Shown: positions 1,566 through 55,333 of the stretch, piece by piece
Layout of the letters: each line of letters opens with the position of its first letter
Position numbering within the stretch: position 1 is the stretch's first letter
DNA from: a virus
Lineage: Duplodnaviria; Caudoviricetes
IMG/VR virus record: IMGVR_UViG_3300026194_000310
Coordinates: 6,125 to 70,124 of that record
Reading direction: 5' to 3' (one strand)
DNA: 64,000 bases
The notes under the pieces: generated by a model
What the model was told of the DNA's origin: nothing
Databases searched by the model: none
Seen by the model: the letters and a program-made list of their open reading frames with translations, nothing else
Program-made: the position numbers and the translations under genes

Positions 1566-1975
1566 GTTACCTGCACCTCCTCGCACTTCTCGGTAAAGTG
1601 CCGAATGGGTATGCCCTGCTTTTTCGCTTTGCTGATTTCCCGGGCCATACCATCTGACACCCGGTGTCCGAACACCCACAGCTCATCGCATTTGCTAAGT
1701 AGAACCAGGGCGAAATATAGTCCGAGTTCGCGCTCTTTTGGGTCGCTATCATCCATAAACTGTGGGTAGTGGAGATGCGGCGCGAGGGGGATATATCCCT
1801 TGCTGACGGCAAACCGGCAATAGCCCAGCGCACGGATGATGTTGTGTTTCGTGTCACCGGCAAAAGGAGAGCAGATATAAACCAGCTGGCGGTACCGTTT
1901 TTCCTTCTGCGCCGCACCGTCCGAAGAAGGAGCGGCTATATGTTCCGGGCAGCCCCCGCTGTTACACCCGTCCAT
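1562..1975 (-). CDS. DUF4406-like phage protein (nucleoside deoxyribosyltransferase-like fold)
   Basis: VYICSPFAGD...IPLAPHLHYPQF...LLSKCDELWVFG motif; homolog at 50844-51266; start re-chosen at ATG 1975. Confidence 0.7.
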   Translation of the reverse strand: MDGCNSGGCPEHIAAPSSDGAAQKEKRYRQLVYICSPFAGDTKHNIIRALGYCRFAVSKGYIPLAPHLHYPQFMDDSDPKERELGLYFALVLLSKCDELWVFGHRVSDGMAREISKAKKQGIPIRHFTEKCEEVQVT

Positions 1976-2747
1976 CCCTATCCGCCCCTCCCCCGAGAAA
2001 GTAGTTGACAAAATACTGCTGCCCTTTGCCAGTAACTTTGGTGGTCTTGCTGATGGTGACATGACCATCCGAATGGGTAATGGCGGTTTCTTTTACTTTG
2101 AAAAGACCGAGTTCCATAGCCTTTTGGGTCGGCGCGTTGTAGTCTGTGCCTTTGCGCTTGATAAGGAAGCCGTCCTGGCGGAGCCTTTCAAACAGGCGGT
2201 TCTGGCCGATTTCGATACCGTTGCCTTTGAGGATTTTCGCCAGTTCGCCGATTAAAATGGTGCCGTCCGATACGGATACAGCATCGGCAAATACCACCTC
2301 AGGCTTATCTTGGGCGACCTGTAGCTGAAGCCGCTCTTTTTCCTGGCGTTCCTCCTTGAGGGCGGTCAAGAGCCTAATCCAGGAGTCAGGGTCATTCATG
2401 ATTTCTTCCAGCTTAGAGGTTGTGATGTAAGCTCCGTGCCTGCGAATCTGAGGAAGAACCTCGTGGGTAACCCAGCGTTTAAACTTCTTGGCTTCGGGCT
2501 TGTCAGAGCGCAGGATAACATTGTAAAGCCCGCTCTCGTTAACGATGTTGGTTTGCTGTTGCCTGCCCATGCTGTCGGTGACGTAAGCCAGACTTACATC
2601 ATCCTCGTCAAGCCGGTCGGCAATCATGCGAGCATTGCTGAGTTCCAGCACTCCGCACACATCCTTTAGCACCCACCAAGTTTCGCCGTTCCTCTGGATG
2701 GTTCTGACCTCTTTTCCCTCGTAGGAGAATACCTGCAATTTGTTCAT
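1962..2747 (-). CDS. BRO-family phage antirepressor (Bro-N plus C-terminal ANT/KilAC domain)
   Basis: WWVLKDVCGVLEL...NESGLYNVILRSDKPEAKKFKRWVTHEVLPQIRRHGAY; C-terminal KVTGKGQQYF. Confidence 0.9.
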   Translation of the reverse strand: MNKLQVFSYEGKEVRTIQRNGETWWVLKDVCGVLELSNARMIADRLDEDDVSLAYVTDSMGRQQQTNIVNESGLYNVILRSDKPEAKKFKRWVTHEVLPQIRRHGAYITTSKLEEIMNDPDSWIRLLTALKEERQEKERLQLQVAQDKPEVVFADAVSVSDGTILIGELAKILKGNGIEIGQNRLFERLRQDGFLIKRKGTDYNAPTQKAMELGLFKVKETAITHSDGHVTISKTTKVTGKGQQYFVNYFLGGGADRDGRV

Positions 2748-2757
2748 TTGGATTCGT

Positions 2758-2829
2758 CCTTTCCGAAGGCTTGGATTTTGTGTTTTGGCCTTCGCTATAT
2801 CGCCACCACAAGGAGCGGAATCGGACGGT
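2758..2829 (-). promoter_or_regulatory. Prophage 1 repeated promoter-like element, copy B
   Basis: CCGTCCGATT...GGTGGC...GAAGGC...GCCTTCGGAA on the minus strand, shared with 7005-7070. Confidence 0.55.
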
Positions 2830-2842
2830 CCATTATTTTTTT

Positions 2843-4777
2843 CTAATCTTTTTTATAGAAAAGGCACTCAAAGCCATCGGCGCGAAGCAAAAGCCCCTTT
2901 GCCCAGGGCGGGGTTTTGCCCATTACGGCGCATATATCATCAACCGTTACCTCATCCGGGGCTTCAATAACAACCTCGTCATGGACATGCATTACGATAA
3001 TGCAGCCCATAGCGTCCAAACGGCGCATGGCATGGCAGAGAATGTCTCTTGAGGTCGCCTGGACGATGTTCTCCACGAACTTAGGCCCGTAGCTTTCGAT
3101 GCGCTCCCATTTCTTGTTTGTCCCAATACCCTCATATGTCACCGATTCGCCGCCGAAGCGGTTTAGCTCTATTCTGGGCTTTACATAGCAAAGGTTCCTG
3201 CCGGATGGCAAGGTAATGAACAGCATTCCGCTGCGGTACCCAATACGGATTCCGTGTGTTTCCGCAGTGGCGCGATCCTTGACCGCCTTTTTGGCAGCCC
3301 GGTCAACGTCCCACCAGAACCGGACGATGTTGGGGTTGGCCTTTCGCCAGGCGGTCACCAGCGGCTGGAGTTCCTCTTCGGAAAGCCCCATATCCAAAGC
3401 GCCCATAGCGGTTAAAGCACCAACCGATCCGCCGTAGCCAAGCGCCAATTCGGCTATTTTCCCTTTCTGGCGCAGGGGGCTGCCTTTGTTGACCTCTTCA
3501 ATGGGGACATGGAACATCTGCGCCGCCGATGCTTCATAAATCTTGCCGTGGGTGGCAAATACCTCATTACGCCATGTTTCACCCGCCAACCAGGCTATTA
3601 CCCTGGCTTCAATGGCGGAAAAGTCAGCAACGATAAATTTGAATCCAGATTCGGGAATGAATGCGGTACGGATAAGTTCGGATAAAACGGAGGGCACTGA
3701 ATCATAGAGCATCTCTGCTGCATCAAATTGCCCGGAGCGAATAAGATTGCGCGCTTCCTCCAAATCTGGTAGATGGTTTTGCGGAAGGTTTTGTACTTGA
3801 ATCAACCGCCCAGCAAAACGGCCGGTACGATTAGCTCCGTAGAACTGCAGCAACCCGCGCGCCCTGCCGTCGGAGCAGACTGCGTTTTCCATCGCTGTGT
3901 ATTTCTTTATACTTGACTTGGCCAGCTTCTGCCGTAATTCTAAAACACGTCCCAGATTTCCGGGTGCGGTCTTAAGCAGCTCCTTAACCGCTGCTTTGTC
4001 CAACGTGTCGGTTTCAAGACCATGATCGGCAAGCCAAGTCTTCATCTGCACGACTGAGTTGGGATTATCCAGTGCGGTCAGCTCTTGCATAACTCGCGTC
4101 AGTTCCGACCGGGATTGCTCATCGCAGCGGATCGCCTGCCTGACCAGGGTCATGTCCAGCAGGATACCTCGGTCATTGATTTCCTGGTCGAGGATATAGT
4201 TTTTCCATTCATCCTCCGGTACGGGGAAGTTAGCCAGCTTTGCCTGCAAAGCCATTTCCGTTTCCACGTCGCGGGCATTGTAGGCTTTGAAGCGTTCCCA
4301 CCTTTCAGGGTCGTGTTCGGGGAGATTACGTGTTCGCTGGCCGTTTGTTTTTGTGGGCTTGCAGGGCATGGAGAAGTAGCGGATTAGATCTTTCCCCTCA
4401 GTCAGCTTTTGCTTTTCCGCGCCGGTGACTAATGCAGCGCCCTCCAGCGACAAAGGCAGACCAAGATAGGCGGACCATACCATGGTACAGCGCCAGGAAT
4501 CCGGCTTCAGCCACTGGTTAAGATAGCGGGACAGGCATACCCGTTCAAACTGCGCATTATGTGCCCATTTGATAACGGACTCATCTAAAAGGGCGCTGTA
4601 AATCTCATCCGGCAGATGTTCACCTCTGGCCAGATCAATAACCTGAACACCTCCGCCGTCAACACTGTAACCGAACAACAGGATTTCAAAATCCGGGGAC
4701 TCAGCATAGCGATAGACCCCGCTTTTGGCGAGGTCTACCGTGCTGAAAGTCTCTAAATCAATACTAAGCGTTCTCAT
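2843..4777 (-). CDS. polA: Phage family A DNA polymerase
   Basis: SIDLETFS exonuclease motif, ADFSAIEARV motif A, LRQKGKIAELALGYGG motif B, MHVHDE motif C. Confidence 0.92.
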   Translation of the reverse strand: MRTLSIDLETFSTVDLAKSGVYRYAESPDFEILLFGYSVDGGGVQVIDLARGEHLPDEIYSALLDESVIKWAHNAQFERVCLSRYLNQWLKPDSWRCTMVWSAYLGLPLSLEGAALVTGAEKQKLTEGKDLIRYFSMPCKPTKTNGQRTRNLPEHDPERWERFKAYNARDVETEMALQAKLANFPVPEDEWKNYILDQEINDRGILLDMTLVRQAIRCDEQSRSELTRVMQELTALDNPNSVVQMKTWLADHGLETDTLDKAAVKELLKTAPGNLGRVLELRQKLAKSSIKKYTAMENAVCSDGRARGLLQFYGANRTGRFAGRLIQVQNLPQNHLPDLEEARNLIRSGQFDAAEMLYDSVPSVLSELIRTAFIPESGFKFIVADFSAIEARVIAWLAGETWRNEVFATHGKIYEASAAQMFHVPIEEVNKGSPLRQKGKIAELALGYGGSVGALTAMGALDMGLSEEELQPLVTAWRKANPNIVRFWWDVDRAAKKAVKDRATAETHGIRIGYRSGMLFITLPSGRNLCYVKPRIELNRFGGESVTYEGIGTNKKWERIESYGPKFVENIVQATSRDILCHAMRRLDAMGCIIVMHVHDEVVIEAPDEVTVDDICAVMGKTPPWAKGLLLRADGFECLFYKKD

Positions 4778-5352
4778 GACAGGAAATCATCGTCCACGTC
4801 AGTGGCAAAATCGTCAGCAGCATTTGATCTGCCACCCAGCGGTTCACCGTCACGGATTTTCTGGATGTTGCCCAGACCACAGGCGATTCCTTTATTGCCG
4901 TTGGAATTAAAAGCATAAAAATTAATGCTGACCCTCGCGTAAACGCCAGAATAAATCTCGGAACGTTCAAGGATAGGGTTGACTTGCCTGTCCACGATTT
5001 GCGGAGCGGTATTGCTATTGGCGTTAACGAAATAGCTGTTGGCGTAGGCTTCGTCATCAGGGCGGTCGATATCGCCATCACGGAGCGGAAGTTTTAACTG
5101 CGCTTTAGAGGGAATCTTGCCGCCAAATTTGCCTTTGCCTTCCTCGATCGCTGCATCCACAGCAGCATTAATGGCCGCGATGGTCTTAGTGTCTGACTTG
5201 GGGATAATCAGGCTGACACTGTATTTCTCCGCGCCGCCGTTGATGGACTTGGGTTCCCATACGTTCGCATAGGATAGACGTACAATGCCGGTGATAACTT
5301 TGGTGGGATTTTTCCCAGGACTACGATTAACTCTGTTTGCTGTATTTGACAT
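4774..5352 (-). CDS. DUF2815 family ssDNA-binding protein
   Basis: RLSYANVWEPKSINGG...LPLRDGD...GIACGLGNIQKIRDGEPLGG, acidic tail; start re-chosen at ATG 5352. Confidence 0.85.
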   Translation of the reverse strand: MSNTANRVNRSPGKNPTKVITGIVRLSYANVWEPKSINGGAEKYSVSLIIPKSDTKTIAAINAAVDAAIEEGKGKFGGKIPSKAQLKLPLRDGDIDRPDDEAYANSYFVNANSNTAPQIVDRQVNPILERSEIYSGVYARVSINFYAFNSNGNKGIACGLGNIQKIRDGEPLGGRSNAADDFATDVDDDFLS

Positions 5353-5356
5353 AGTA

Positions 5357-6484
5357 TTAAACCTCCATAAATTCATTTTTTGCGTTTGATATACTCATCG
5401 CTGGTCGCTTATCCGTAATCGGAACTAGGGTCGGTTTGCCGGGCGGCTTTATAACCAGTCCGCCGAGAATTTCATTAAACCTGGATTTGCCCATCAGCTT
5501 TTCCATCTCAGTAATGGTGATAAGGCTCTGCTTATAGATGTCACGGTATCCAGCAGCTTTTGCCGCTTCGGCTACGGCCTTCTCGTCGGTATATTTTCGG
5601 ATGGAGCGCCCCTCGACCACCTTGAAACCGGGCCACTCCTTGCCATGGTTCACAGCGGCGTCTGTGGCATAGGCAATAATCTCATTTGCCCAACTGGTCA
5701 GGTCGCCGATCAAATTGAGAACCTCGCCAATTTCCTCATCGGAAAGCAAGGGAGGAAGGGCAAACTCAAAGGCCGCCAGTTTAAGCTTGGCTTCGGCTCT
5801 GGCTCGACACTTTACCGCAGCCCGGCAGAACTGACAGTGTTCACCCGGGACGTACTCGCCCTCACCTTTAAAAGCCAACTCAGCGGTGGGTATCAGTGTT
5901 TCCTCCGCCCATTGATAAAGCGATTCTTTAAATACCGTGTAGGTGCTGACATTCTCCCGGCGCGGCTGGAAAATGGTCATGGCCACTGTGCTGATGTCAT
6001 ATATCCCGTCAAACAGTTCCAGGGCACCAAGTGCATATAGCTTCATCTGGGGATTGTCCTGGGCATTTACCAGAACGCCCTGCCCATACTTAAAATCGAT
6101 AACATGGAGTGTACCGTCGCCGATAATAACGCAATCGCCGGTACCGAAACCGTCCGGTACATACCTGGAAAAATCCAGCCTCTGCTCAATCAGTACCAAC
6201 GGGTCGTTGCAGGTCAACTTTATCTGGGCGATGGTTTCAAGAACAAAATCCACGTAAGCGTCGGTGTGGGCGTCCATTTCGTCGCAGTCGTACTTGGAGA
6301 TTGGCTTCTTCGAGCGCATTTTCAGTGCCCGGCGCAGCTTGTGTTCAGCGAGGGCATGAGCTGCGGTACCCTCAGCGGCGGCTTCGCTTTCACTCTCATC
6401 AAACTCCATCTCCAGCCTGGCTGATGGGGTACAGTTCATCCAGCGGTGCGCTCCGGAAGCGGAGAGAATAGCGTGTTTGCTCAT
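5357..6484 (-). CDS. DUF2800 family PD-(D/E)XK nuclease
   Basis: HAILSASGAHRW, GFGTGDCVII, DFKYG, NPQMKLYALGAL, GEHCQFC. Confidence 0.85.
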   Translation of the reverse strand: MSKHAILSASGAHRWMNCTPSARLEMEFDESESEAAAEGTAAHALAEHKLRRALKMRSKKPISKYDCDEMDAHTDAYVDFVLETIAQIKLTCNDPLVLIEQRLDFSRYVPDGFGTGDCVIIGDGTLHVIDFKYGQGVLVNAQDNPQMKLYALGALELFDGIYDISTVAMTIFQPRRENVSTYTVFKESLYQWAEETLIPTAELAFKGEGEYVPGEHCQFCRAAVKCRARAEAKLKLAAFEFALPPLLSDEEIGEVLNLIGDLTSWANEIIAYATDAAVNHGKEWPGFKVVEGRSIRKYTDEKAVAEAAKAAGYRDIYKQSLITITEMEKLMGKSRFNEILGGLVIKPPGKPTLVPITDKRPAMSISNAKNEFMEV

Positions 6485-6804
6485 TTCAGCCCCTCCGCAT
6501 CCGCGAGAAGTGCGGGATAATTCGCCGGGTCAATTTCACTGAGCCTTGATGCACCGTGCTTCTCCAACAGTGCTCGGACCTCAGCGGTAAAGCCGTCATG
6601 GCTTTTCGCAGCCAGCACAGCCCGGACTTGCTCAAGCGTGACCGCTTTGGTTTCAGACTTTTCTTCCTTATTGACAGTTGGTGTTTCCGGCTTCAAAGCC
6701 CCGCTAGGCTCACCATCCGCCACTGCCTCTGCAACTGCCAAAATGCTGTCTGCCAGATTTTTCAGGTTAGCCGCTACATCCAGCAACAGCTTGGTTTTGC
6801 TCAT
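6481..6804 (-). CDS. Conserved phage protein of the DUF2800/DUF2815 module
   Basis: C-terminal LEQVRAVLA...VRALLEKHGASRLSEIDPANY; homolog at 55323-55655. Confidence 0.7.
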   Translation of the reverse strand: MSKTKLLLDVAANLKNLADSILAVAEAVADGEPSGALKPETPTVNKEEKSETKAVTLEQVRAVLAAKSHDGFTAEVRALLEKHGASRLSEIDPANYPALLADAEGLK

Positions 6805-42396: not shown

Positions 42397-43662
42397 CTAT
42401 ACACCCGCTGTAGGACTGGTTTCGACTTCCTTTGCCAGAGCGGTATAGAGGAGCTTTTCGCCGTTCCTTATTACATACACATTCTCTTCATCTCCGGTAT
42501 CCTCCACATAGCGCCGGAGGATGACAGAGGCGTATTTTGGATCAAGTTCCATCATGTAGCAGATACGGTTCAGCTGCTCGCAGGCCATAAGGGTGGAACC
42601 GGAACCGCCGAAGGTATCAATGACCAGAGAGTTCTCCTGCGTGGAGTTCTGGATAGGATAACCCAGAAGATCCAGAGGCTTGCTGGTCGGGTGATCCTTG
42701 TTGCGTTTTGGCTTATCGTAGTTCCAGATGGTTGTCTGCTTGCGGTCGGAATACCACGGGTGCTTGCCGTTCTGCAAAAATCCGTAGAGCACCGGCTCAT
42801 GCTGCCACTGATAATCAGAACGACCGAGTACGAGAGAGTTCTTTACCCAAATGCACACACCGGCGAGGTGGAAGCCCGCGTCAATGAATGCTTTTCTAAA
42901 GGTGAGACCTTCGGTATCCGCGTGAAAGCAGTAGGCGGCTCCGCCTTTTTCGAGGTGGTCGGCCATGTTCTTAAAAGCCGCCAGCAGGAATTTATAAAAC
43001 TCCTCGCCCTTTAAGCTGTCATTCTGGATTGTGAGACCATCCGAGGCTTTGAAGGATACGCCATAGGGCGGATCGGTCAGGACGAGGTTTGCCTTTTTGC
43101 CGTCCATGAGCTTTTTCACATCCTCCGGAGAGGTGGCGTCGCCGCACATGACGCGGTGCTTGCCGACTGTCCAGATGTCGCCGGGCTCCACAAAGGAAGC
43201 CTTCTCCAAAGCAGCAGTCAGGTCGAAGTCATCATCTGCGATATCCTTTTCATTTCCGGTGCCGAGCAGCTTATCCAGCTCACCGGCATCAAAGCCGAGG
43301 AGCGAGAGGTCAAAGGACTGATCCTGCAGGTCGGATAATTCGACCGACAGCATTTCCTCATCCCATCCGGCATTGAGCGCCAGCTGGTTGTCCGCGAGGA
43401 TATATGCACGCTTCTGAGCTTCTGTCAGGTTTTCTGCAAAGACACAGGGCACGGTTTCATAGCCTTCCTCGCGGGCAGCGGTAATGCGTCCGTGTCCGAC
43501 GAGGATGTTATAGTCTGCGTCAATGACGGCAGGACTCACAAAGCCGAACTCCCTAAGAGAAGCTCTGAGCTGCGCAATCTGTTCCTTGCTATGCGTTCTT
43601 GCATTTCTGGCGTAGGGTACCAGCTTTTCGATAGGTACCTGTTCCAATTTCTGTGTGTTCAT
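42397..43662 (-). CDS. ParB-like domain fused to an N6/N4 DNA methyltransferase
   Basis: LVPYARNARTHS...GHGR ParB domain; TDPPY, HPTSKP, DTFGGSGST. Confidence 0.88.
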   Translation of the reverse strand: MNTQKLEQVPIEKLVPYARNARTHSKEQIAQLRASLREFGFVSPAVIDADYNILVGHGRITAAREEGYETVPCVFAENLTEAQKRAYILADNQLALNAGWDEEMLSVELSDLQDQSFDLSLLGFDAGELDKLLGTGNEKDIADDDFDLTAALEKASFVEPGDIWTVGKHRVMCGDATSPEDVKKLMDGKKANLVLTDPPYGVSFKASDGLTIQNDSLKGEEFYKFLLAAFKNMADHLEKGGAAYCFHADTEGLTFRKAFIDAGFHLAGVCIWVKNSLVLGRSDYQWQHEPVLYGFLQNGKHPWYSDRKQTTIWNYDKPKRNKDHPTSKPLDLLGYPIQNSTQENSLVIDTFGGSGSTLMACEQLNRICYMMELDPKYASVILRRYVEDTGDEENVYVIRNGEKLLYTALAKEVETSPTAGV

Positions 43663-44217
43663 TTATCGCATCTCCCTTCTGGCACGGAGCAGGCGCTCCA
43701 TTACATCATCCTGTGGTGTGTTGCCGTTGTAATCGGTCAGGCAGTTTTCCTTGACGATCTGGTAAATCTGATACCAGAGCTGATTGGTTTGCTTCATATA
43801 GTTCTGGGACATGGTCACGAACGGGGAAGCTATCGGATTTCCGCTGGTTGGGTGCTTTGAAAGCATCGAGTAGCGGGAAATCGCGTGTTCACACTGAATC
43901 CATCTGGCCACGCTCATAGCGTATTGGTCTATCAGCTGTCGGTTGACGAGCTTCTCGCATTTGAGCGAGGCGAGCCATTCCCATGTCTCCTTGAAAACGT
44001 CGGCGGCACAAAGCTCTATGCCGTTCTGTTGCTTTTCGAGCATATAATCACGAGGGTCAGGAGCATCCTCACCTTCGATGTCAGGCGGCTCCGGCAGATC
44101 CATTATCTTGAGGGCTCTGCCGCCGGGATTACCTGCGTCGAGCTTTTCCTTTATTCCTTTTGCTGGTCGGCCTTGACCGAACCGTTGACCGCCTCTGGCG
44201 GTACCATCCTTAGCCAT
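43663..44217 (-). CDS. terS: Terminase small subunit (P27-like)
   Basis: MAKDGTARGG...GRP, YAMSVARWIQCE, DDVMERLL. Confidence 0.8.
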   Translation of the reverse strand: MAKDGTARGGQRFGQGRPAKGIKEKLDAGNPGGRALKIMDLPEPPDIEGEDAPDPRDYMLEKQQNGIELCAADVFKETWEWLASLKCEKLVNRQLIDQYAMSVARWIQCEHAISRYSMLSKHPTSGNPIASPFVTMSQNYMKQTNQLWYQIYQIVKENCLTDYNGNTPQDDVMERLLRARREMR

Positions 44218-44331
44218 AAAAATCACTTCCTTATCGTTGAGAGGGTTTATTCCCTCTTTGTTTTCGCTTTTTTTGCGTAAAAGAGGCCGCACCGTTTTCC
44301 GGGCAAAAGGTTCGTAGAGATTCTGACCGCC

Positions 44332-44679
44332 CTACCGGTCGCCGCGCTCGCGGTGTATCTTCTCGTGACACGAACGACAAAGGCTCATGAGATTCGACTC
44401 ATCATTGCTGCCGCCTTCTGCAAGAGGAATGATGTGGTGGACTTCCTCCACGGCGACGTAGCGTCCTTCCTTTAAGCACTGCTCGCAGAGGGGATGCTTG
44501 TGGACGTAACGGTCACGGATTCGTTTCCAAGCTCTGCCGTAGCGTTTGCCGGGAGAGTAGCCGCGCTGGAACTTCTCGTAGTGCTGTTCCATCTGCTTGG
44601 CGTGCTCCTCGCAGTAAACACCGTCGGTCAGGTTCGGGCAGCCGGGAAAGCGGCACGGTCTTTTTGGTTTTCTTGGCAT
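44332..44679 (-). CDS. Packaging-associated HNH endonuclease
   Basis: PLCEQC...EEVHHIIPL...NLMSLCRSCH. Confidence 0.88.
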   Translation of the reverse strand: MPRKPKRPCRFPGCPNLTDGVYCEEHAKQMEQHYEKFQRGYSPGKRYGRAWKRIRDRYVHKHPLCEQCLKEGRYVAVEEVHHIIPLAEGGSNDESNLMSLCRSCHEKIHRERGDR

Positions 44680-45270: not shown

Positions 45271-45494
45271 AGGCGTTTTGCCTCCTCTCGTAGTTTGTTT
45301 ATCAGGTACTCGCCATCCACGCTCGTCAAGGTCTTGTACCAGCCGGATCGGAAGAACCGTTCACACTCCATCGCATCCGACATGGCGGCTTTGTTGCTGG
45401 GCTTCTTTTTCAGGCGCTTCAGGGCATCCCGGTAGTCCTTTACGGCCTGCAGCACGATTGCGTTGGCGAGATTTTCATAAGGATCAAGCATCAC
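45267..45494 (-). CDS. Conserved hypothetical phage protein
   Basis: DPYENLANAIVLQAVKDYR...ERFFRSGW. Confidence 0.7.
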   Translation of the reverse strand: MMLDPYENLANAIVLQAVKDYRDALKRLKKKPSNKAAMSDAMECERFFRSGWYKTLTSVDGEYLINKLREEAKRL

Positions 45495-46844
45495 ACCACC
45501 TCTGCTTTGACGGCATCGATCAGTGCGGCCTGCGTCATTTCCTTTTTGACCAGTGCTTTCATGATCCTCTCGTCGATGGTGCCCTTAGTGATGATGTGCT
45601 GGATCACCACAGTCCGGGATTCTTGGCCTTGCCTCCAGAGGCGGGCGTTCGTCTGCTGATATAGCTCCAGCGACCATGTGAGGCCGAACCACACAAGGGT
45701 GGAGCCTCCGGACTGAAGGTTGAGGCCATGACCGGCAGAGGCCGGATGGATGACTGCTACAGGAATCTTTCCCGCATTCCAGTCAGCGATATCTTGGCTT
45801 GTCTTGATCTCCCGGACATTGAAACGGTTCTTAATACGGGAGAGGTCATGCCGGAACCAGTAGGCCACCAGCAGCGGCTTTTCGTTAGCGGCCTCGATAA
45901 TATCCTCCAGAGCGTCCAGCTTCCGGTCGTGGAAGGAGATGATCTCGCCGGTATCGGCATAAATGGCACCGTTTGCCAGCTGGCAGAGCTTACCGGTCAG
46001 GGATGCTGCATTGGCTGCGGTTACTTCACCGTCAGGGAGCTGCAGGATGAATTCCTGCTTCAGATCCTCATACCGGTCACGCTCGGACTCGGATAATTGC
46101 ACCTCATAGGCCGTAGAAACCAACTCCGGCATCTTCAGGTGGTCGGTGGATTTCATGGAAATCGTGATATCCGAAATTTTCCGGTAAATGGCATCCTCTG
46201 CATAAGGCATTGGTTTGTAGGAGTAGATGATTTCGCCGTTACGCTTGTCCGGCATGAAGTAATTTGTCCGGTACTGCGTGATAAAGCGTCCAAGGCGCTC
46301 ACCCATATCCAGAACCTTGAACTCTGCCCACAGATCCATGAGACCGTTGGAAGAAGGGGTGCCGGTGAGCCCGATAATTCGATGGAGCTTCGGTCTTACC
46401 TTCATCAGGGACTTGAAGCGCTTGGATTTGTGATTTTTGAAGGATGACAGCTCGTCGATGATCACCATATCGAAGTCGAAGGGAATGCCGGAGCTGTCAA
46501 TGAGCCACTGCAGGTTTTCGCGGTTGATGATCGTGATATCTGCTCTCTGCATAAGTGCAGCTTTTCGCTCCTTCGGTGTCCCGACTGCGACCGCATAGGT
46601 CAGACCGCTAAGGTGCTGCCATTTCTGAATCTCCGCAGGCCAAGTATCTCGTGCGACTCTTAAGGGAGCCACTACAAGCACGCGCCGTACTTCGAAGCTG
46701 TCAAACAGCAGGTCATATACGGCAGAAAGAGTAATCACTGTTTTGCCCTCAACCTAAGCCCATATCAAGCAGGACAGCAGCTACGGGATTCTTCTCGATG
46801 TAAGAAATCGCGTATTTCTGATAATCATGCGGTATGAACTTCAT
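45491..46844 (-). CDS. SNF2-family helicase split by a 7-nt insertion at Walker A (pseudogene or recoded gene)
   Basis: 46749-46844 encodes MKFIPHDYQ...LLDMGLG*; after TGAGGGC the frame resumes with KTVITL...VIIDELSSF...LTGTP...AGHGLNLQ...ARLWRQGQ. Confidence 0.8.
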
Positions 46845-47134
46845 TCGGCATCACCTCCCTTCGTTATGTTTGCTAACATTTCGGTTATCTGCTCCGGGTC
46901 GTCGATAACGTAGACCGCAAATCCCAACTTCCGAAGGAGCCGGTGTCTTGCCACCTGCAGCGGTCGTGGTTTCTTGCCCGGAGCCTTTAATTCTGCAAAA
47001 GCCATGACTCCACCCGGAAGAAGGATCAACCTGTCTGGCATACCGTCGAATCCGGGAGAGACCAGCTTCGGCGCGATGCCGCCGGTGGCCTTCACAGCCT
47101 TTACAAGTTTCTGTTCAGTCTCTTTTTCTCGCAT
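46841..47134 (-). CDS. VRR-NUC domain protein
   Basis: GFDGMPDRLILLPGG...FAELKAPG. Confidence 0.85.
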   Translation of the reverse strand: MREKETEQKLVKAVKATGGIAPKLVSPGFDGMPDRLILLPGGVMAFAELKAPGKKPRPLQVARHRLLRKLGFAVYVIDDPEQITEMLANITKGGDAE

Positions 47135-47144
47135 AGGCTTCACC

Positions 47145-47387
47145 TCACTCGGTCGGCATGGAGTAGCCGTCGTCAGCGATGTGCTTGAATATTTCCTCCA
47201 GTACTTCCTGTGCACGTTCCTTAGACGCATACTTCCCAAGGTCGACCTGAACTCTTGTATTACCTCTGCTGGTTCCGGTTTCCCGCACAGCGACAAGAGT
47301 GATGCCATCGGTATCCTTTTTCATCGCAATGCGATCAAATGTGTTGATATTGGTAATCTGATAGTGGTTTTGATTCATAATCCACAT
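47145..47387 (-). CDS. Hypothetical protein
   Basis: ORF with a GGAGG RBS in operon position. Confidence 0.6.
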   Translation of the reverse strand: MWIMNQNHYQITNINTFDRIAMKKDTDGITLVAVRETGTSRGNTRVQVDLGKYASKERAQEVLEEIFKHIADDGYSMPTE

Positions 47388-50843: not shown

Positions 50844-51266
50844 TTAGACCTCCTGACATTCTTCTGTGAAATAGCGCAAGCGGTAGTCCTTCCACTTGGC
50901 GCGGTTGATTTCTGCTTCCATACCGGATGAGATGCGGCTGCCGAATACCCAGACCTCTGCGCACTTGCTCATGAGGGCGTTCCCGAAGAATAGTCCCAGC
51001 TCACGTTCTGCCGGGTTGTCATCGTCAAGGAACTGCGGAAACAGCAGGTGCGGTGCGATGGGGATATATCCCTTGTCCACGGCAAAGCGGCTGTAGCGTC
51101 TGGCATTAGCCACATTTGTTTCCACATCTCCGGAAAACGGAGAGCAGATGTAGACGATAGGCCGGAAAGCGCGAAGAGACTGTCTCTCATTAGCAAGAAT
51201 CCGGGAGAGAGCTTCTCCTGCCGTAGGATCGGCATAACCTTCACTGTTTCGATAATCGTTACTCAA
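50844..51266 (-). CDS. DUF4406-like phage protein
   Basis: YICSPFSGD...APHLLFPQF...KCAEVWVFG; probable TTG start after AGGAGG. Confidence 0.7.
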   Translation of the reverse strand: MSNDYRNSEGYADPTAGEALSRILANERQSLRAFRPIVYICSPFSGDVETNVANARRYSRFAVDKGYIPIAPHLLFPQFLDDDNPAERELGLFFGNALMSKCAEVWVFGSRISSGMEAEINRAKWKDYRLRYFTEECQEV

Positions 51267-51313
51267 ACCAGAGTCCTCCTTTCCGGGCAGACTTAAGGCG
51301 TCCGCCTCCAATT

Positions 51314-51353
51314 TCCACTGGAGATGAACGCCTGATTTGAGCGGACGATTTTT
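51314..51353 (-). promoter_or_regulatory. Prophage 2 repeated promoter-like element, copy 2
   Basis: tccactggagatgaacgcctgatttgagcggacgattttt. Confidence 0.65.
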
Positions 51354-53355
51354 AATCTTTTTTGTAGAAGGGTGTGACGTAGCCGTCGGCGCGGAGCTTC
51401 AGGCCTTTTGCCCACGGCGGAGTCCTGCCCATCTGTTCACAAAGAGCATCAAGGGAGACGCGAGGATCAGCCTCAATGACCAGCTCGTCGTGGATGTGCA
51501 TGACAATATCGGAGCAGCGGAGCGTCTTCATGGCGTAGCAGAGAATATCGCGGGAGGTCGCCTGCACGATGTTTTCCACAAATTTCGGGCCGTATGAGTC
51601 GAGCCGTTCCCATTTCTTTGTGGCTCCGACACCTTCATAAGTAATACACTCGCCGCCGAATTTGTTAGTGCCGACCTTCGGCTTCACATAAGCGAGGTTC
51701 CTGCCGGAGGGAAGCGTGATAAAGAGCATCCCGGAGCGGCAGGAGAAGGTAAGCCCGTAGCAGGAACTTGTCTGCTTGTATTTCACGGCCTGCATGACTG
51801 CACGGTCGATGTCCCACCAGAATTTCACGATATGGGGATTCGTCTGCCGCCAAGCCTGCACCAGCGGAGGAAGCTCATCTTCGGTCAAGCCCATCTCGAT
51901 AGCTCCCATAGCTTTAAGGGCACCGACCGAGCCGCCGTAGCCGAGTGCGAGTTCCGCGATCTTACCTTTCTGGCGGAGGTGGCCGTTTACGCCATGCTTC
52001 TCGACCGGGACATGGAACATTTGTGAGGCCGAGGCGCAGTAGATGTCGCCGCCGTCCGCGAATACCTTCTGCCGCCATGTTTCACCGGCATACCAAGCGA
52101 TGACGCGGGCTTCTATTGCGGAGAAGTCGGAAACATAGAACTGCGTGCCGTCCTTCGGGATGAATGCCGTGCGGATAAGCTGTGACAGAGTGTCTGGCAC
52201 ATCCTCATACAGGAGCTTTACGGCATCGAAGTCACCGGATTTCACAAGGGCGCGGGCATCGGCCAGATCCGGCAGGTGGTTTTGCGGGAGGTTTTGTAAT
52301 TGGATTAGCCTCCCTGCCCAGCGACCAGTGCGGCTCGCTCCGTAGAACATGAACATGCCGCGAGCCCTGCCGTCGTCACAGACCGCACGTTCCATCGTCT
52401 GATATTTCTTGACGGATGATTTGGCAAGCTGCTGACGGAGCTCCAGTACGTTCTGCAATTCCGGAGGAGCGGTTTTGATAAGCTCTGCCACGACCTTTTT
52501 ACCAAGGCTGTCGGTTTCGAGGCCGTTGCCGGAGAGCCACTGTTTCATTTGCTGGACGCTGTTCGGGTTATCAAGGTCGGTGATTTCCTTCATGGCGGCA
52601 GTCAGCTCTTTGCGGGAGCGGGTATCCATCTCGATGGCTTCCTTCACCAGATCCATATCAAGCTTCACGCCACGGTCATTGATTTCCTGATCGATGTGAT
52701 ACTCGTCCCAGACCGAATCCGGTACTGGGTAATTGGTAAGCCGCTGCTGGATCGCCATTTCGACCTCCACGTCACGTTTGTTATATGCCTTAAAGACAGA
52801 CCACTTTTCCGGATCGTCAGAGGGCAGGTTACGGGTGCGGCCACCATTGGACTTTGTGGGAGCGCAGGGCACGGAGAAGTATTTGATGAGCGCCTTGCCC
52901 TCGTCCATCTTCTGATCGTCGAGTTTTAATACTGCGCCGACACCTTTTAAGGACAGAGGAAGTCCCAGCGTAGCCGCCCAGACCATAGAGCAGCGCCAGC
53001 TTTCTGGATTCAGGAACCGGGCGCACTCCTGCGAAAGCGGGTGGTTATCGTGGAAGGGGTCAAGGCTGATGCCACGGTCTGAAAGATAGCGAGACAGGCA
53101 TACACGTTCAAACGCGACATTAAATCCCCACTTTATAACCGAATCGTCCGTCAAGGCAGACAGGACATCTTCCGGTATCTGTTCTCCTTGAGTCAGATCC
53201 ACAACATGGACTTCGCCGCCATCAACTGCATAACCGAACAGCAGAATCTCGAAATTTGGAGACTCCGCGTACTTATATAAGCCACACTTGGCAAGGTCGA
53301 CATCACTGAACGTTTCAAGATCGATTGAGAGCTTCTGTATTTTCTCTTGATTCAT
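51352..53355 (-). CDS. polA: Phage family A DNA polymerase
   Basis: SIDLETFS, SDFSAIEARV, LRQKGKIAELALGYGG, MHIHDE. Confidence 0.92.
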   Translation of the reverse strand: MNQEKIQKLSIDLETFSDVDLAKCGLYKYAESPNFEILLFGYAVDGGEVHVVDLTQGEQIPEDVLSALTDDSVIKWGFNVAFERVCLSRYLSDRGISLDPFHDNHPLSQECARFLNPESWRCSMVWAATLGLPLSLKGVGAVLKLDDQKMDEGKALIKYFSVPCAPTKSNGGRTRNLPSDDPEKWSVFKAYNKRDVEVEMAIQQRLTNYPVPDSVWDEYHIDQEINDRGVKLDMDLVKEAIEMDTRSRKELTAAMKEITDLDNPNSVQQMKQWLSGNGLETDSLGKKVVAELIKTAPPELQNVLELRQQLAKSSVKKYQTMERAVCDDGRARGMFMFYGASRTGRWAGRLIQLQNLPQNHLPDLADARALVKSGDFDAVKLLYEDVPDTLSQLIRTAFIPKDGTQFYVSDFSAIEARVIAWYAGETWRQKVFADGGDIYCASASQMFHVPVEKHGVNGHLRQKGKIAELALGYGGSVGALKAMGAIEMGLTEDELPPLVQAWRQTNPHIVKFWWDIDRAVMQAVKYKQTSSCYGLTFSCRSGMLFITLPSGRNLAYVKPKVGTNKFGGECITYEGVGATKKWERLDSYGPKFVENIVQATSRDILCYAMKTLRCSDIVMHIHDELVIEADPRVSLDALCEQMGRTPPWAKGLKLRADGYVTPFYKKD

Positions 53356-53419
53356 AGTATTTTCACCTCAATTCAAACAAGCGGCAGAGAATGTATCCCT
53401 GCCGCCTGCCGTTTCTGAT

Positions 53420-53611
53420 TTACTCTAAGGACTTCATGCGCTTCTCATGGTACTCATCGTCCTGTGCGGCCTTTTTCTCCTCGCGTTTCTCACGCTTGAA
53501 GTCATTGATCACCGTCTGGATGGCGACCACTGCCCATGCGATCACTACGACGCAGAAGCAGGCGATCAGGATGTTGCAGAGAAGGGATGAAATCATAACT
53601 GTGCTTTCCAT
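53420..53611 (-). CDS. Small single-TM membrane protein
   Basis: Hydrophobic N-terminal half and charged tail. Confidence 0.6.
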   Translation of the reverse strand: MESTVMISSLLCNILIACFCVVVIAWAVVAIQTVINDFKREKREEKKAAQDDEYHEKRMKSLE

Positions 53612-53629
53612 TGGTTGTCACTCCTTTCT

Positions 53630-54202
53630 TTAATCCAGAAAATCATCTTCGTCATCGGTAGCGAAGTCGGACTCAGCACTGGCCTTGCCGCCGAGAGGCT
53701 CACCGTCACGGATTTTCTGCAGGTTGTTGAGCCCGCAGGCGATTCCCTTGTTGCCAGAGCTGTTGAATGCGTAGAACGTGATGCTGGCGCGGCCATACAC
53801 ACCGGAGTACACCTCGGAACGGGTGAGGATCGGGTTCAGGTCTGCATCCACGATGCCGGGAGCAGAGGTAGCGTTGGCATTGATGAAATAGGCGTTCTTG
53901 TAGGCCTCGTCGTCCGGGCGCTCTGCATCGCCGTCACGGAGAGGTGTCTTCAGAACGGAAAGAGCCGGTACGGACTTGCCGTTGCCCTTGAGCTTGGCCT
54001 CGCCCTCCTTATAGGCAGCTTCGATGGCGGCCTTGATCTTGGCGAGGGTCTTGGTGTCGGACTTCGGGATGATGAGGCTCACGCTGTACTTAGGTGTGCC
54101 TCCGTTGATGGACTTCGGCTCCCACACGTTGCAGTAGCTCCAACGAGTGTCAACACCGGTGATAACCTTCATAGGATTGTTGATTCTTACATTCTTGTTC
54201 AT
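53630..54202 (-). CDS. DUF2815 family ssDNA-binding protein
   Basis: RWSYCNVWEPKSINGG...PLRDGD...GIACGLNNLQKIRDGEPLGG. Confidence 0.85.
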   Translation of the reverse strand: MNKNVRINNPMKVITGVDTRWSYCNVWEPKSINGGTPKYSVSLIIPKSDTKTLAKIKAAIEAAYKEGEAKLKGNGKSVPALSVLKTPLRDGDAERPDDEAYKNAYFINANATSAPGIVDADLNPILTRSEVYSGVYGRASITFYAFNSSGNKGIACGLNNLQKIRDGEPLGGKASAESDFATDDEDDFLD

Positions 54203-55333
54203 TTAGTTTTCCTCCATAAAATCATTTTTGGCTGTGTTCATGGCCGGACGCTTATCGGACTCCGGCACAAGAGTGGGTTTGCCCTGCGGCTTTTCGATAT
54301 AGGCCGTCAGGAGTTCATCAAAACGGGACTTGCCGAGCAGCTTCTGCATGGCGGTGATGCCCAGCAGCTTCTTCTCATACGGGTCAAAGCCCGCTTTCTC
54401 GACCGTATCGATAACTGCGGCCTCGTTGTTGTATCTACGATTGCTGCGTCCTTCGACGAGCTTGAAGCCAGACCATTCCTTACCGGAGAGAGCCTGCTGC
54501 AGGGCATATTCCTTGATGTCGGAAGCCCAGCTGACCAGCTCGTCTACCTTGCCGAGGATGACCTCGATCTCAGTGTCCGTAAGCAGTGGCGGGAGCTTGA
54601 AATCATGCTGCGCGAGCTTCAGGTTGGCCTCAGCTCTGGCGCGACATTCATTCTTGGCTTTGCAGAAGCCGCACCACTCGCCACACAGGAAGTTCCCGTC
54701 ACCGGCAAAGGCCAGCTCTGCGGTGGGCTTCAAGACCACATCTGCCCAGCGGTACAGGTCGTCCTTGCTGATCTCGTAGGTACTGACGTTCTGGCGTCTC
54801 GGCTGGTAGATCGTCATGGAAACCTGATCGATGTCGTAAATATCATCGAAAAGCTCCAAGCTGCCCAGCGCGTAGCATTTCATTTGCGGATTCTCCTCTG
54901 CGGAGACTAAGACGCCAAGGCCGTGCTTGTAGTCAATTACCCGGAGCGTGCCGTCCGCGATGATGATGCAGTCGGCGGTGCCGAAGCCCTGTTCTACCCA
55001 GCGGGAGAAGTCCACACGCTGTTCGATAAGGACTACCGGATCAGTACAGTTTTCCTTGGCGGCCTCGACCTGCTCCAGCACATACTCTGCATAGCCGCTG
55101 GTGCAGTCCTCCATCTCCTCGGAATACCATGTGAGGTTTTCGGTCGGGTCTTCTGCAGGAATTCCCAGTGCTGTCTTGAGCTTGTACTCGCCAAGAGCAT
55201 GAGCATCGGTACCTTCTGCAGCGTAGTCACTTCCTTTATCTTCATAGGTTTCACAGAGCCTTGCTGAAGGCGGGCAGTGGAGCCAGCGGTCGGAACTTGA
55301 TGCGGAGAGGATCGCGTGCTGTTTAGCTGCCAT
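54203..55333 (-). CDS. DUF2800 family PD-(D/E)XK nuclease
   Basis: HAILSASS, GFGTADC, DYKHG, NPQMKCYALG, GEWCGFC. Confidence 0.85.
   Translation of the reverse strand: MAAKQHAILSASSSDRWLHCPPSARLCETYEDKGSDYAAEGTDAHALGEYKLKTALGIPAEDPTENLTWYSEEMEDCTSGYAEYVLEQVEAAKENCTDPVVLIEQRVDFSRWVEQGFGTADCIIIADGTLRVIDYKHGLGVLVSAEENPQMKCYALGSLELFDDIYDIDQVSMTIYQPRRQNVSTYEISKDDLYRWADVVLKPTAELAFAGDGNFLCGEWCGFCKAKNECRARAEANLKLAQHDFKLPPLLTDTEIEVILGKVDELVSWASDIKEYALQQALSGKEWSGFKLVEGRSNRRYNNEAAVIDTVEKAGFDPYEKKLLGITAMQKLLGKSRFDELLTAYIEKPQGKPTLVPESDKRPAMNTAKNDFMEEN

Follow-up and report, generated by a model that had tools for sequence, protein, structure and literature searches.

A phage gene for an SNF2 helicase is broken by a stop codon and four further nucleotides in the middle of its Walker A codons, and the reading frames on both sides of the break are open. 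The question raised by this locus is whether a complete helicase could still be produced from it, and by which route. An earlier note on the window (the whole stretch of 64,000 nt that was analysed) had suggested programmed bypassing from a GGT codon to a matched Gly codon, which could throttle helicase output, with a +1 shift, an inactivating indel, the scar of a homing element or an assembly error as alternatives. From the comparisons below, it is likely that the window helicase is expressed via a 'stop-hop', in which ribosomes bypass a few nucleotides in a programmed manner. The gap in the window is one example of a conserved 4-9-nt gap in more than 170 phage helicase genes, over which ribosomes most likely hop.

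The interrupted helicase gene in the window

The features of the locus, all on the minus strand, are as follows.

46752..46844, minus: N-part of the SNF2 helicase, 31 codons by ORF reading, MKFIPHDYQKYAISYIEKNPVAAVLLDMGLG; its last codon is GGT at 46754..46752
46751..46749, minus: TGA, the stop that closes the 31-codon ORF, read from the sequence
46745..46751, minus: the 7-nt filler TGAGGGC, which contains the candidate landing codon GGC at 46747..46745
46752..46766, minus: the frozen 15-nt block GAT ATG GGC TTA GGT, directly 5' of the filler
45491..46744, minus: C-part of the SNF2 helicase, 417 codons plus stop, matching Pfam SNF2-rel_dom
46744..46742, minus: candidate resume codon AAA, the Lys of the Walker A GKT, read from the sequence
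45493..45491, minus: stop of the 417-codon frame (coding frame 46744..45494)
46841..47308, minus: upstream ORF, its C-terminal part VRR-NUC-like by a weak match of a homologue
46859..46898, minus: 40 nt, the empty site of a nuclease gene, by blastn against L052

The junction reads GAT ATG GGC TTA GGT TGA GGGC AAA ACA GTG ATT. The 31-codon ORF encodes MKF...LLDMGLG, and K-T-V-I-T... opens in the +1 frame after the filler. The helicase ATG and the stop of the ORF before it share nucleotides in ATGA (46844..46841). Re-reading of the sequence agreed with the earlier note on three points, namely the 31 codons ending in GGT and followed by TGAGGGC and a Lys-Thr frame, the coupling of the helicase start to the upstream gene via ATGA, and the DMGLGKT obtained by deleting TGAGGGC, a motif which is also present in intact relatives.

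The C-part matched SNF2-rel_dom (PF00176, E=1.3e-15, 57.8 bits against a cut-off of 24.9), and in a second Pfam search it scored 63.2 bits, again above the cut-off. DMGLGKT, its Walker A motif, is whole only when the filler is skipped, and removal of the 7 nt gives an exact match to the intact relatives. The gene therefore has the PF00176 domain of an SNF2-family (SF2) helicase and, if the filler is skipped, also its Walker A GxGK[ST]. The protein sequence of the C-part was 92-94% identical to intact relatives, while the N-part was 87-94% identical to other interrupted genes and 62-78% identical to intact ones. The same filler, TGAGGGC, was found in 7 distinct genes, including one in a Streptococcus pluranimalium prophage (L269). 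Cultured strains that carry a filler in this helicase include Geosporobacter ferrireducens IRF9 (L318, TAGGA, with the HNH_3 gene described below), Faecalibacterium intestinale CLA-AA-H281 (L307, TAAGGA), Acetobacterium fimetarium DSM 8238 (L299, TGAC) and Mobilitalea sibirica DSM 26468 (L314).

The break is not an error of sequencing or of assembly, the latter considered in the earlier note, because independently assembled contigs from other bioreactor-metagenome samples carry the identical junction; one contig spans 46599-46851 and another 46317-46858, and neither differs from the window at the junction.

Conservation of the interruption across the family

A census set of 235 distinct junctions was compiled from viral contigs and Bacillota prophages. 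A filler of 4-9 nt was present at the same codon in 173 of the 235, a fraction which is no prevalence, as two of the three census samples were chosen with the motif. From a set of pattern matches in genome contigs, 54 of 120 were chance matches with no helicase context and were dropped. With a scan anchored ~70 nt upstream, which left the junction itself unconstrained, 84 of 110 genes were interrupted there, 80 of them by a stop at codon 32 and 4 by a filler starting with a sense codon. The recurrence in 173 of 235 junctions rules out chance, and it also excludes an inactivating indel private to the window, since the same codon is interrupted across the family with both ORFs open; the recent indel offered in the earlier note is thereby set aside. 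A hypermutable or phase-variable site was likewise rejected, because fillers are stable among close relatives (>90% of them are unchanged between relatives with at least 85% flank identity) and a repeat tract is absent.

The 173 fillers fall into 31 types and use all three frames, with lengths of 4 nt (28 genes), 5 nt (86), 6 nt (39), 7 nt (16), 8 nt (1) and 9 nt (3). The first filler codon is a stop in 167 genes (TAG 83, TGA 61, TAA 23) and otherwise AGG, CGG, CCA or TGG. In fillers of at least 6 nt, the last triplet is GGN for 57 of 59 genes and for 16 of 18 filler types, against a chance expectation of 1/16. Over all lengths, the landing triplet is GGN in 127 of the 173 interrupted genes, and imperfect in the remaining quarter or so (AGC 31, GAC 9, AGT 4, AGA 1, GAT 1). 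All but two of these 46 triplets sit in 4-5-nt fillers, where they overlap the first filler codon (a stop in 42, CCA in 2). A 4-nt filler has no room for both a stop and a GGN triplet; TAGC and TGAC retain the stop, and TGGC, AGGA and CGGC retain GGN, so that their first codon is AGG or CGG (Arg) or TGG (Trp). The idea that mismatched landing triplets are compensated by a third base C held by gene counts but failed by filler types. The relatives thus align as GGT, a stop, a short variable gap and GGN in many carriers, which is the pattern that the earlier note had expected of programmed bypassing; uninterrupted GGN-AAA in all relatives, which it had named as evidence against, was not what the family showed.

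Both parts of the gene are under selection. All 100 complete downstream ORFs are open (291-435 aa). Among 105 interrupted genes, which are mutually near-saturated at synonymous sites (pS 0.66-0.82), pN/pS was 0.31 in the 31 N-terminal codons and 0.31 in the first 40 codons after the filler. The comparison of the two sides proposed in the earlier note therefore gave equal purifying selection. The 31-aa nascent chain is the conserved helicase N-terminus, with the same peptide pattern in intact genes. Across all filler classes GLGK[TS] arises only by skipping the filler and, as this holds in every class, a short translational hop is the best reading. From the conservation of GLG and of K[TS] on either side of the gap, we infer a single polypeptide without filler residues. 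In 247 loci, no large insert such as an intron, an intein or a nuclease gene was found to separate the two parts of the helicase. At one locus (L133) a 31-codon stub lies beside unrelated DNA; this is a truncated prophage end with no insert.

A linear 5' block and a linked nuclease gene

The synonymous sites directly upstream of the filler are fixed only in interrupted genes (GAT in 92/95, GGC in 95/95, TTR in 88/95 and GGT in 90/95). Third-position entropy in this block is 0-0.3 bits (1.2 at the Leu codon) in interrupted genes and 1.7-1.9 bits in intact ones, and the codons flanking the frozen block are near saturation. The same block accompanies all filler lengths. No conserved hairpin was found at the site, as RNAalifold gave 0 pairs on 41 diverse junctions and the fold of the window had z=0.12. 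A Shine-Dalgarno (SD)-like stimulator inside the block was not supported either, because the duplex with the 16S tail (its sequence taken from general knowledge) was no better in interrupted (-5.3 kcal/mol) than in intact genes (-5.4). There are no tRNA genes in the window and so no phage-encoded suppressor or unusual tRNA there. The linear 15-nt block GAUAUGGGCUURGGU is probably part of the hop signal.

The proposed hop would proceed as follows. A ribosome decodes the 31 codons until peptidyl-tRNA-Gly would be held on GGU in the P site with UGA in the A site. Part of the ribosomes would then skip termination, with the tRNA detaching from GGU, the mRNA sliding by 7 nt and the tRNA re-pairing on GGC. 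Decoding would restart at AAA and give ...LLDMGLG-KTVITL..., a normal Walker A with zero filler residues. GGU and GGC are decoded by one tRNA-Gly(GCC) under standard wobble rules, which makes it the candidate for the hop. Two elements expected of a bypass site are present in the window, a stop or slow codon right after the take-off codon (GGT TGA) and a cognate landing codon directly 5' of the resume codon (GGC AAA); the third, a take-off stem-loop, is absent from the 41 junctions and from the window fold. The hop may need no hairpin, with the linear 5' block as a likely part of its signal. Across the family the commonest landing triplet is GGA, whose third position is neither a Watson-Crick nor a wobble match to the GCC anticodon.

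A possible origin of the gap is suggested by the neighbouring genes. Among 152 interrupted loci, 32 have a full HNH_3 gene adjoining the start of the helicase, and among 53 intact loci none does (Fisher p=4e-5, kinship ignored); the homologue of this nuclease at L173 matched HNH_3 (PF13392) with E=7e-13. In blastn blocks, the window has 40 nt at a place where L052, whose cassette is near-identical, carries 516 nt with an HNH_3 endonuclease gene. No HNH_3 domain was found anywhere in the window's record by Pfam search, so the filler is an orphan. The window and L052 differ by 3 mismatches in 90 nt upstream of the filler and by 40 in 240 nt downstream, which by this comparison places the edge of the cassette at the filler. 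The intact or interrupted state switches at least 17 times on the tree of the C-part. We propose a mobile cassette whose right end consists of the first 31 codons together with the filler, and the gap seems to spread together with the selfish nuclease gene. By analogy with T4 MobA and gene 60, the filler would disrupt the nuclease target, which would lie in the conserved Walker A codons, and its carrier would thereby be protected; the window has the filler and lacks the nuclease gene. The scar of a lost homing element, as put forward in the earlier note, was partly right, in that the HNH_3 gene lies immediately before the helicase in relatives and has been lost from the window or was never there; this is compatible with bypassing, and the two ideas are not in conflict.

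A VRR-NUC-like ORF is the commonest upstream neighbour in intact and interrupted loci alike. The 99-aa neighbour at L258, which is homologous to the window's, had a weak VRR_NUC match under the cut-off (E=1.4e-3), and the window's own upstream ORF had no Pfam match. Apparent 'HNH_3 fragment' matches in the window and in intact loci were rejected, as they cover only the first ~67 residues of the 232-aa query ORF; these residues are taken as VRR-NUC-like rather than as remnants of the nuclease.

Taken jointly, two proposals are held with moderate confidence. The first is that these genes are a natural, selected stop-hop family in which ribosomes of many Bacillota would routinely skip 4-9 nt after GGU-stop on a 15-nt linear signal, and the second is that an HNH_3 homing cassette is aimed at the Walker A codons, with the gap as its immunity half.

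Competing explanations and known bypass systems

The filler could instead be translated by ordinary recoding according to its length (+1 for 4 or 7 nt, -1 or +2 for 5 or 8 nt, readthrough for 6 or 9 nt), leaving 1-3 extra residues in the P-loop, GLGEGKT in the window. Stops in the A site are known to promote +1 frameshifting, as in prfB (PMC5009743). Translated 5-, 6- and 7-nt fillers would still keep GxGKT (GLG-LG-KT, GLG-xG-KT and GLG-EG-KT), and GGN before the Lys would then be a decoded Gly codon and no landing site. However, this reading requires three mechanisms at one site, yet a single 5' block serves all lengths. GGU is also unable to re-pair in the +1 frame (GUU), and a -1 slip onto GGG requires a Leu codon ending in G, whereas TTA is used in 73 of 173 genes. 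Compared with prfB, the site lacks GGU to GUU re-pairing and any better anti-SD pairing, and its shifts would be +1, -1/+2 and 0. In the 4-nt and TGAGN classes (~45 genes), a translated filler would turn the motif into GLGSKT, GLGDKT or GLGLSKT, without the Gly that is invariant in GK[ST]. Among in-frame fillers, the commonest begins with TAA, generally regarded as the stop codon least prone to readthrough, and the absence of tRNA genes leaves no suppressor tRNA in the window. Reassignment of the stop codon by itself was rejected, as most filler classes change the frame. Ordinary recoding is thus unlikely for the family; the +1 shift of the earlier note may apply to the window gene alone, as readthrough or a different shift would be required for fillers of 5, 6, 8 and 9 nt.

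It is also rather improbable that the helicase is inactive in its carriers, with the filler as a scar or immunity mark and the ORFs intact because the events are recent or the C-part acts independently of its ATPase. The linkage of the HNH_3 gene to the filler, the mosaic cassette and the stub of L133, which borders unrelated DNA where its prophage is truncated, would be expected in this case. An intact SNF2 homologue in a tandem prophage of the same record could also supply the function, and the interrupted copy need not be essential here. Five other records, two of them complete phage genomes, have the interrupted gene as their sole SNF2 match, and the equal pN/pS on both sides at near-saturated synonymous divergence, which covers the stub and the K-T codons, stands against inactivity, as do the 100 open downstream ORFs. 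Fillers that are unchanged among relatives, still diverse across the family, are not what inactivity would predict either. A very small probability is given to removal of the filler before translation, whether from mRNA by editing or micro-splicing or from replicating phage DNA. Excising exactly the filler would restore the gene every time, but the site has no conserved structure and no homopolymer on which a polymerase could slip. In four samples the DNA contigs carry the filler, and no contig lacks all 7 nt, a weak point against loss from DNA because contigs may conceal rare variants. To our knowledge, neither bacteria nor phages have a mechanism that cuts 4-9 nt out of an mRNA. Hardly credible is a split helicase, in which a C-terminal protein with its own start would assemble with the 31-aa peptide and no recoding would occur. 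The window does have a GTG two codons past the filler with an RBS-like GAGGG 7 nt upstream, but starting there drops the Walker A lysine and, as the codon after K-T varies (GTG in the window; GTC, GTT, ATC, GCT or ACT in most relatives; and others), no start is conserved past the filler. We know of no precedent for a P-loop split between G and K over two chains. Bypassing from GGT to a matched Gly, as first suggested in the earlier note, is the only reading that fits all lengths, stops and frames.

The closest known system is T4 gene 60, whose bypass lies in the MobA (HNH) homing element and some of whose gene 60/MobA lineages kept the bypass and lost the nuclease (Huang et al. 1988, Bonocora et al. 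2011, as summarised in bioRxiv 10.1101/2022.08.31.505936 and PMC5009743). It shares with the helicase site a Gly take-off codon with a stop directly behind it and a second Gly codon, for landing, adjacent to the resume codon. It also resembles the helicase family in having a gap in an essential DNA-metabolism gene with an HNH-type endonuclease gene just upstream, a cassette which brings its own copy of the 5' codons and has its edge at the landing site, and lineages which retained the gap after loss of the nuclease. The differences are that gene 60 encodes a topoisomerase with a gap of 50 nt (20 nt in the shortest clade), whereas the helicase gap is 4-9 nt in an SNF2 Walker A and has no take-off stem-loop. 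The helicase nuclease is HNH_3 (PF13392), of another family than MobA, and is located before the natural start with the ORF unsplit. There is no sequence homology between the two systems, and the helicase bypass is a predicted one.

Synthetic stop-hops in E. coli, engineered and of low efficiency (Weiss, Dunn, Atkins and Gesteland 1987, as summarised in PMC5009743), resemble the helicase site in having no elaborate structure and a slow A-site codon as trigger. Unlike them, the helicase arrangement is natural, occurs in well over 100 genes, is kept by selection and has a conserved 15-nt 5' context. According to PMC5009743, a natural in-frame stop-hop is unknown, and shorter counterparts of gene 60 have 'long been presumed'; we found no published report of a stop-hop gap in a helicase. 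In the terminase of Streptomyces phage phiHau3, a 10-nt bypass is triggered by UUA, and mass spectrometry detected the junction peptide without gap residues (PMC10732093). It is likewise a short gap in an essential phage gene with a slow A-site codon, with a proposed regulatory role, but its trigger is a rare sense codon read by the host bldA tRNA, RNA structures and an SD-like element were proposed for it, and it is found in few genomes with no linked homing endonuclease (PMC10732093). The mitochondrial 'byps' of Magnusiomyces capitatus are also many short inserts with take-off and landing codons that are sometimes mismatched, but they are 27-55 nt long, are scattered over many genes and belong to a system with relaxed decoding (PMC5009743), while the helicase gap is at one conserved site in one gene family and concerns bacterial translation.

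As efficient programmed bypassing in bacteria rests essentially on the well-studied T4 gene 60 and the partly tested phiHau3, the helicase family, if the hop is real, would add more than 170 natural variants of one site that differ in gap length, frame, stop and landing triplet. This could serve as a natural mutational series for the minimal bypass signal, including a linear 5' element which is unpredicted by current models. It would also be a second case, independent of the first, in which a homing endonuclease is paired with a bypass gap; this would point to an evolutionary route of general importance, and short-range bypassing could offer selfish nucleases, beyond T4 too, a general and portable way of marking essential genes and protecting them. 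Such helicases are split or discarded by gene callers, so annotation pipelines and calls of prophage 'intactness' are affected; in two complete GenBank phage genomes the helicase pieces are annotated as separate hypothetical proteins, one of them as a wrong-frame ORF.

The interrupted helicase of the window and its intact homolog

On the minus strand of the window, the Walker A codons of the SNF2 helicase read GAT ATG GGC TTA GGT TGA GGGC AAA ACA GTG, with a filler (TGAGGGC) standing between the proposed take-off codon GGT and the Lys codon. The parts of the gene are:

46844..46752, minus strand: 31-codon ORF (MKFIPHDYQKYAISYIEKNPVAAVLLDMGLG), with an ATGA overlap with the upstream ORF at its start
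46751..46749, minus strand: stop codon TGA ending the 31-codon ORF
46744..45494, minus strand: 417-codon frame (K-T-V-I-T-L...), in the +1 frame, 7 nt past GGT

The downstream part was identified as SNF2-rel_dom (Pfam, E=1.3e-15), and in silico deletion of TGAGGGC gave DMGLGKT, matching intact relatives. The 7-nt break described in the earlier note was borne out by the sequence and by contigs from other bioreactor-metagenome samples: X3 (46599-46851) and X4 (46317-46858) span the junction with zero differences to the window, and an artefact was therefore rejected. In runs X1 and X5, a co-occurring relative has this junction shortened by 2 nt, indicating that several filler variants coexist in one community. 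This relative is diverged, its alignment covering only ~39 nt around the junction (window 46746).

The 70,124-bp provirus record, of which the window is 6125-70124, holds a second, intact SNF2 homolog (...LLEMGLGKSVITL...) with the same neighbours as the interrupted copy:

L375 970-2325, minus strand: intact 451-aa SNF2 helicase (locus L375 is record 2409-6155, G000:C1, at the record's left end)

It is part of a second replication module (window 1-6500 and the left flank of the record) that also has a VRR-NUC-like, a primase-like and an HNH gene, and window 1-6.5 kb shows 56-69% protein identity to 50.8-55.3 kb (ORFs at 1562-6484 versus 50844-55333). The arrangement suggests a tandem pair of related prophages, the left member being truncated where the record ends. 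Given the intact homolog in the tandem prophage, the window's host may be able to do without the interrupted copy. In five other records, including two complete phage genomes and two proviruses rated 100% complete, the interrupted gene is the sole SNF2 match.

Fillers among relatives and selection on the two halves

GenBank relatives of the window belong to the proposed order Heliusvirales; they are phages from guts and bioreactors. PV036457 (GGT TAG GT AAG) and PV036419 (GGT TGA GC AAG) have only 67-68% DNA identity to the window, yet break at the same codon. The helicase is mis-handled in the GenBank annotation of both complete genomes (PV036457.1 34855-36225 and PV036419.1 15466-16820), once as a wrong-frame ORF across the junction and once as two hypothetical proteins, 31 and 420 aa in length.

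Of the IMG/VR relatives closest in the C-terminal part, 80 were sampled; ~70 were intact and 9 interrupted, one type being a 6-nt in-frame filler (GGT TAA GGC AAG). A motif scan of viral contigs found at least 111 contigs, nearly all with helicase context. When the scan was anchored on the MKFIPHDYQ codons ~70 nt upstream, leaving the junction unconstrained, 110 genes were obtained, 80 with a stop at codon 32, 26 intact and 4 with a filler opening on AGG, CGG or CCA. Scanning prokaryotes for the motif, with each species represented by a single genome, returned 120 matches, where ~140 would be expected by chance in a collection of that size; the ORF filter was passed by 66, and after a Halobacillus locus (L294) without the helicase N-terminus was dropped, 65 interrupted helicases were left, essentially all in Bacillota and including cultured isolates. 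Pooled and dereplicated, the samples comprise 235 distinct junction regions. Interruptions, of 31 filler types, occur in 173 of them, a proportion that describes diversity and gives no prevalence estimate, as two of the samples were chosen with the motif.

Fillers of the 173 interrupted genes
Length: 4 nt, 28; 5 nt, 86; 6 nt, 39; 7 nt, 16; 8 nt, 1; 9 nt, 3
First codon: TAG, 83; TGA, 61; TAA, 23; other, 6

Both halves of the helicase are kept by selection. Complete downstream ORFs were all 291-435 aa long (100/100, median 422), and K[TS] codons lie 4-9 nt from the Gly codon in every interrupted gene. In 105 interrupted genes, pN/pS was 0.31 on each side of the filler, both in the 31 codons of the N-terminus and in the first 40 that follow the filler, with synonymous divergence near saturation (pS 0.66 and 0.82). 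No conserved start codon was found 3' of the filler in interrupted genes, the next codon being GTG, GTC, GTT, ATC, GCT and others. Fillers are identical in >90% of relatives at a flank identity of at least 85% and change over long distances only; this stability among close relatives led us to reject a hypermutable site. On these comparisons, the window's break is very probably a selected, functional interruption that needs recoding.

Probable recoding at the junction

The earlier note had read the break as a possible translational bypass, and comparison supports this reading, as the layout of GGT, stop, short variable gap and GGN recurs among relatives. All three frames and all three stops are represented among the fillers, therefore no single frameshift or readthrough works, and skipping of the filler alone gives GLGK[TS] in every filler class. 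GGN makes up the putative landing triplet, directly 5' of the Lys codon, in 127 of the 173 interrupted genes; fillers of at least 6 nt, in which the triplet does not overlap the stop, have it in 57/59 genes and 16/18 types (chance expectation 1/16). Fillers of 4 nt have no room for both a stop and GGN, and both compromises were found: TAGC, TGAC and TGAT retain the stop, while TGGC, AGGA and CGGC retain GGN, their first codon being Trp (TGG) or Arg (AGG, CGG). This pattern is what would be predicted for a P-site tRNA-Gly hop set off by a slow A site.

In the window, the tRNA would hop 7 nt from GGU to GGC, two codons that tRNA-Gly(GCC) decodes by the standard wobble rules. Landing on the overlapping GGG at +6 would give a dead frame. 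GGG is the landing triplet in 0/173 interrupted genes, compared to 9/62 at that Gly codon in intact genes, and GGT is the take-off codon in 168/173 compared to 5/62. Stop-less fillers were seen in L205 and L210 (GGT CCAGC AAG), L207 (GGT AGGA AAA), L234 (GGC CGGC AAG) and two loci with GGT TGGC AAA, and there the zero frame continues for 7-15 codons. These may be hops set off by slow sense codons, or decaying copies.

For fillers of 5-7 nt, a mix of frameshifting and readthrough is a possible alternative to the hop, as its products would retain GxGKT. However, it fails in ~45 genes with TAGC, TGAC or TGAGN, where GLGSKT, GLGDKT or GLGLSKT would result; +1 re-pairing is impossible for GGU, and the 73 genes using TTA offer no GGG for a -1 slip. 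The mechanism is, in our judgement, likely to be a tRNA-Gly hop in which no filler residue is inserted. No tRNA genes are present in the window.

Synonymous sites were surveyed in a junction-unbiased sample of 95 interrupted and 22 intact genes. Third-position entropy was 1.5-2.0 bits almost everywhere, but interrupted genes keep the five codons just ahead of the filler nearly invariant (GAT 92/95, ATG, GGC 95/95, TTR 88/95, GGT 90/95). These codons are free to vary in intact genes (1.7-1.9 bits), and codons 3' of the filler are unconstrained.

46752-46766, minus strand: 15-nt block GATATGGGCTTRGGT, with synonymous sites frozen only in filler-carrying genes

RNAalifold found no conserved base pair in 41 diverse junctions, the window junction folds no better than shuffles (z=0.12), and pairing to the 16S 3' tail is no stronger in interrupted than in intact genes. 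With neither RNA structure nor anti-SD pairing accounting for it, the block would serve either recoding, as a linear signal, or some need at the DNA level such as nuclease immunity.

A putative HNH_3 cassette in relatives, and other features of the window

Clustering the neighbours of all junctions revealed a gene of ~164 aa, nearly confined to interrupted loci. It lies after the VRR-NUC-like gene and immediately precedes the helicase, whose start it overlaps through ATGA. It encodes a homing-type HNH_3 endonuclease (PF13392, E=7e-13) and co-occurs with a dozen filler types. A full copy was present in 32/152 interrupted loci with enough upstream sequence versus 0/53 intact loci (Fisher p=4e-5, uncorrected for phylogeny). 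L052, the window's nearest interrupted relative, has the identical filler and 93% identity from 13 nt 5' of the ATG through the filler, but in L052 a stretch of 516 nt that includes the HNH_3 gene takes the place of 40 nt of the window (46859-46898); no HNH_3 was found in the whole record. Mismatches between the two number 3 in the 90 nt upstream and 40 in the 240 nt downstream of the filler, and 3' of it the window is equally close to intact and interrupted genes, which places the cassette's right edge at the filler as judged from the alignments. The intact or interrupted state changes at least 17 times on the tree of the C-terminal part. By analogy, we infer that the filler could protect its carrier against the nuclease.

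The T4 gene 60 bypass spans 50 nt and depends on a hairpin and the nascent peptide. The helicase feature would work as a stop-hop and appears to be organised as a MobA/gene 60 cassette, although it is non-homologous, without a hairpin, and has another nuclease family and another gene. The T4 MobA element carries its own copy of flanking codons and ends at or just past the landing codon, and some lineages without the nuclease retain the bypass (bioRxiv 10.1101/2022.08.31.505936). Likewise, the putative helicase cassette would carry flanking codons and end at the filler, and in the window the nuclease gene is absent but the filler present. Synthetic stop-hops with matched codons flanking the stop are known, natural in-frame ones being said to be unknown (PMC5009743), and a 10-nt bypass in the phiHau3 terminase has been confirmed by mass spectrometry (PMC10732093). 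Our literature search found no paper describing a helicase or Walker A bypass.

At L133 3883-4460, there is a VRR-NUC gene and a 31-codon helicase stub ending in its stop, beyond which the DNA is unrelated and has a coiled-coil ORF, an Xre-like regulator and membrane proteins. The locus seems to be what is left of a truncated prophage, its end lying at the filler or close by.

Further features of the window, the 421-aa ORF and the HNH being read from sequence only, are:

42397-43662, minus strand: 421-aa ORF, ParB-like at its N-terminus, with the DPPY motif (LVLTDPPYG) typical of N6/N4 DNA methyltransferases
43663-44292: small ORF adjoining the 421-aa ORF
44332-44679: packaging-type HNH near the 421-aa ORF, homologous to the PF01844 match of locus L108
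17937-19526 and 19499-21298, minus strand: two adjacent large ORFs with 45% identity over 329 aa

By their similarity, the last two are identified as tandem paralogs within the structural region.
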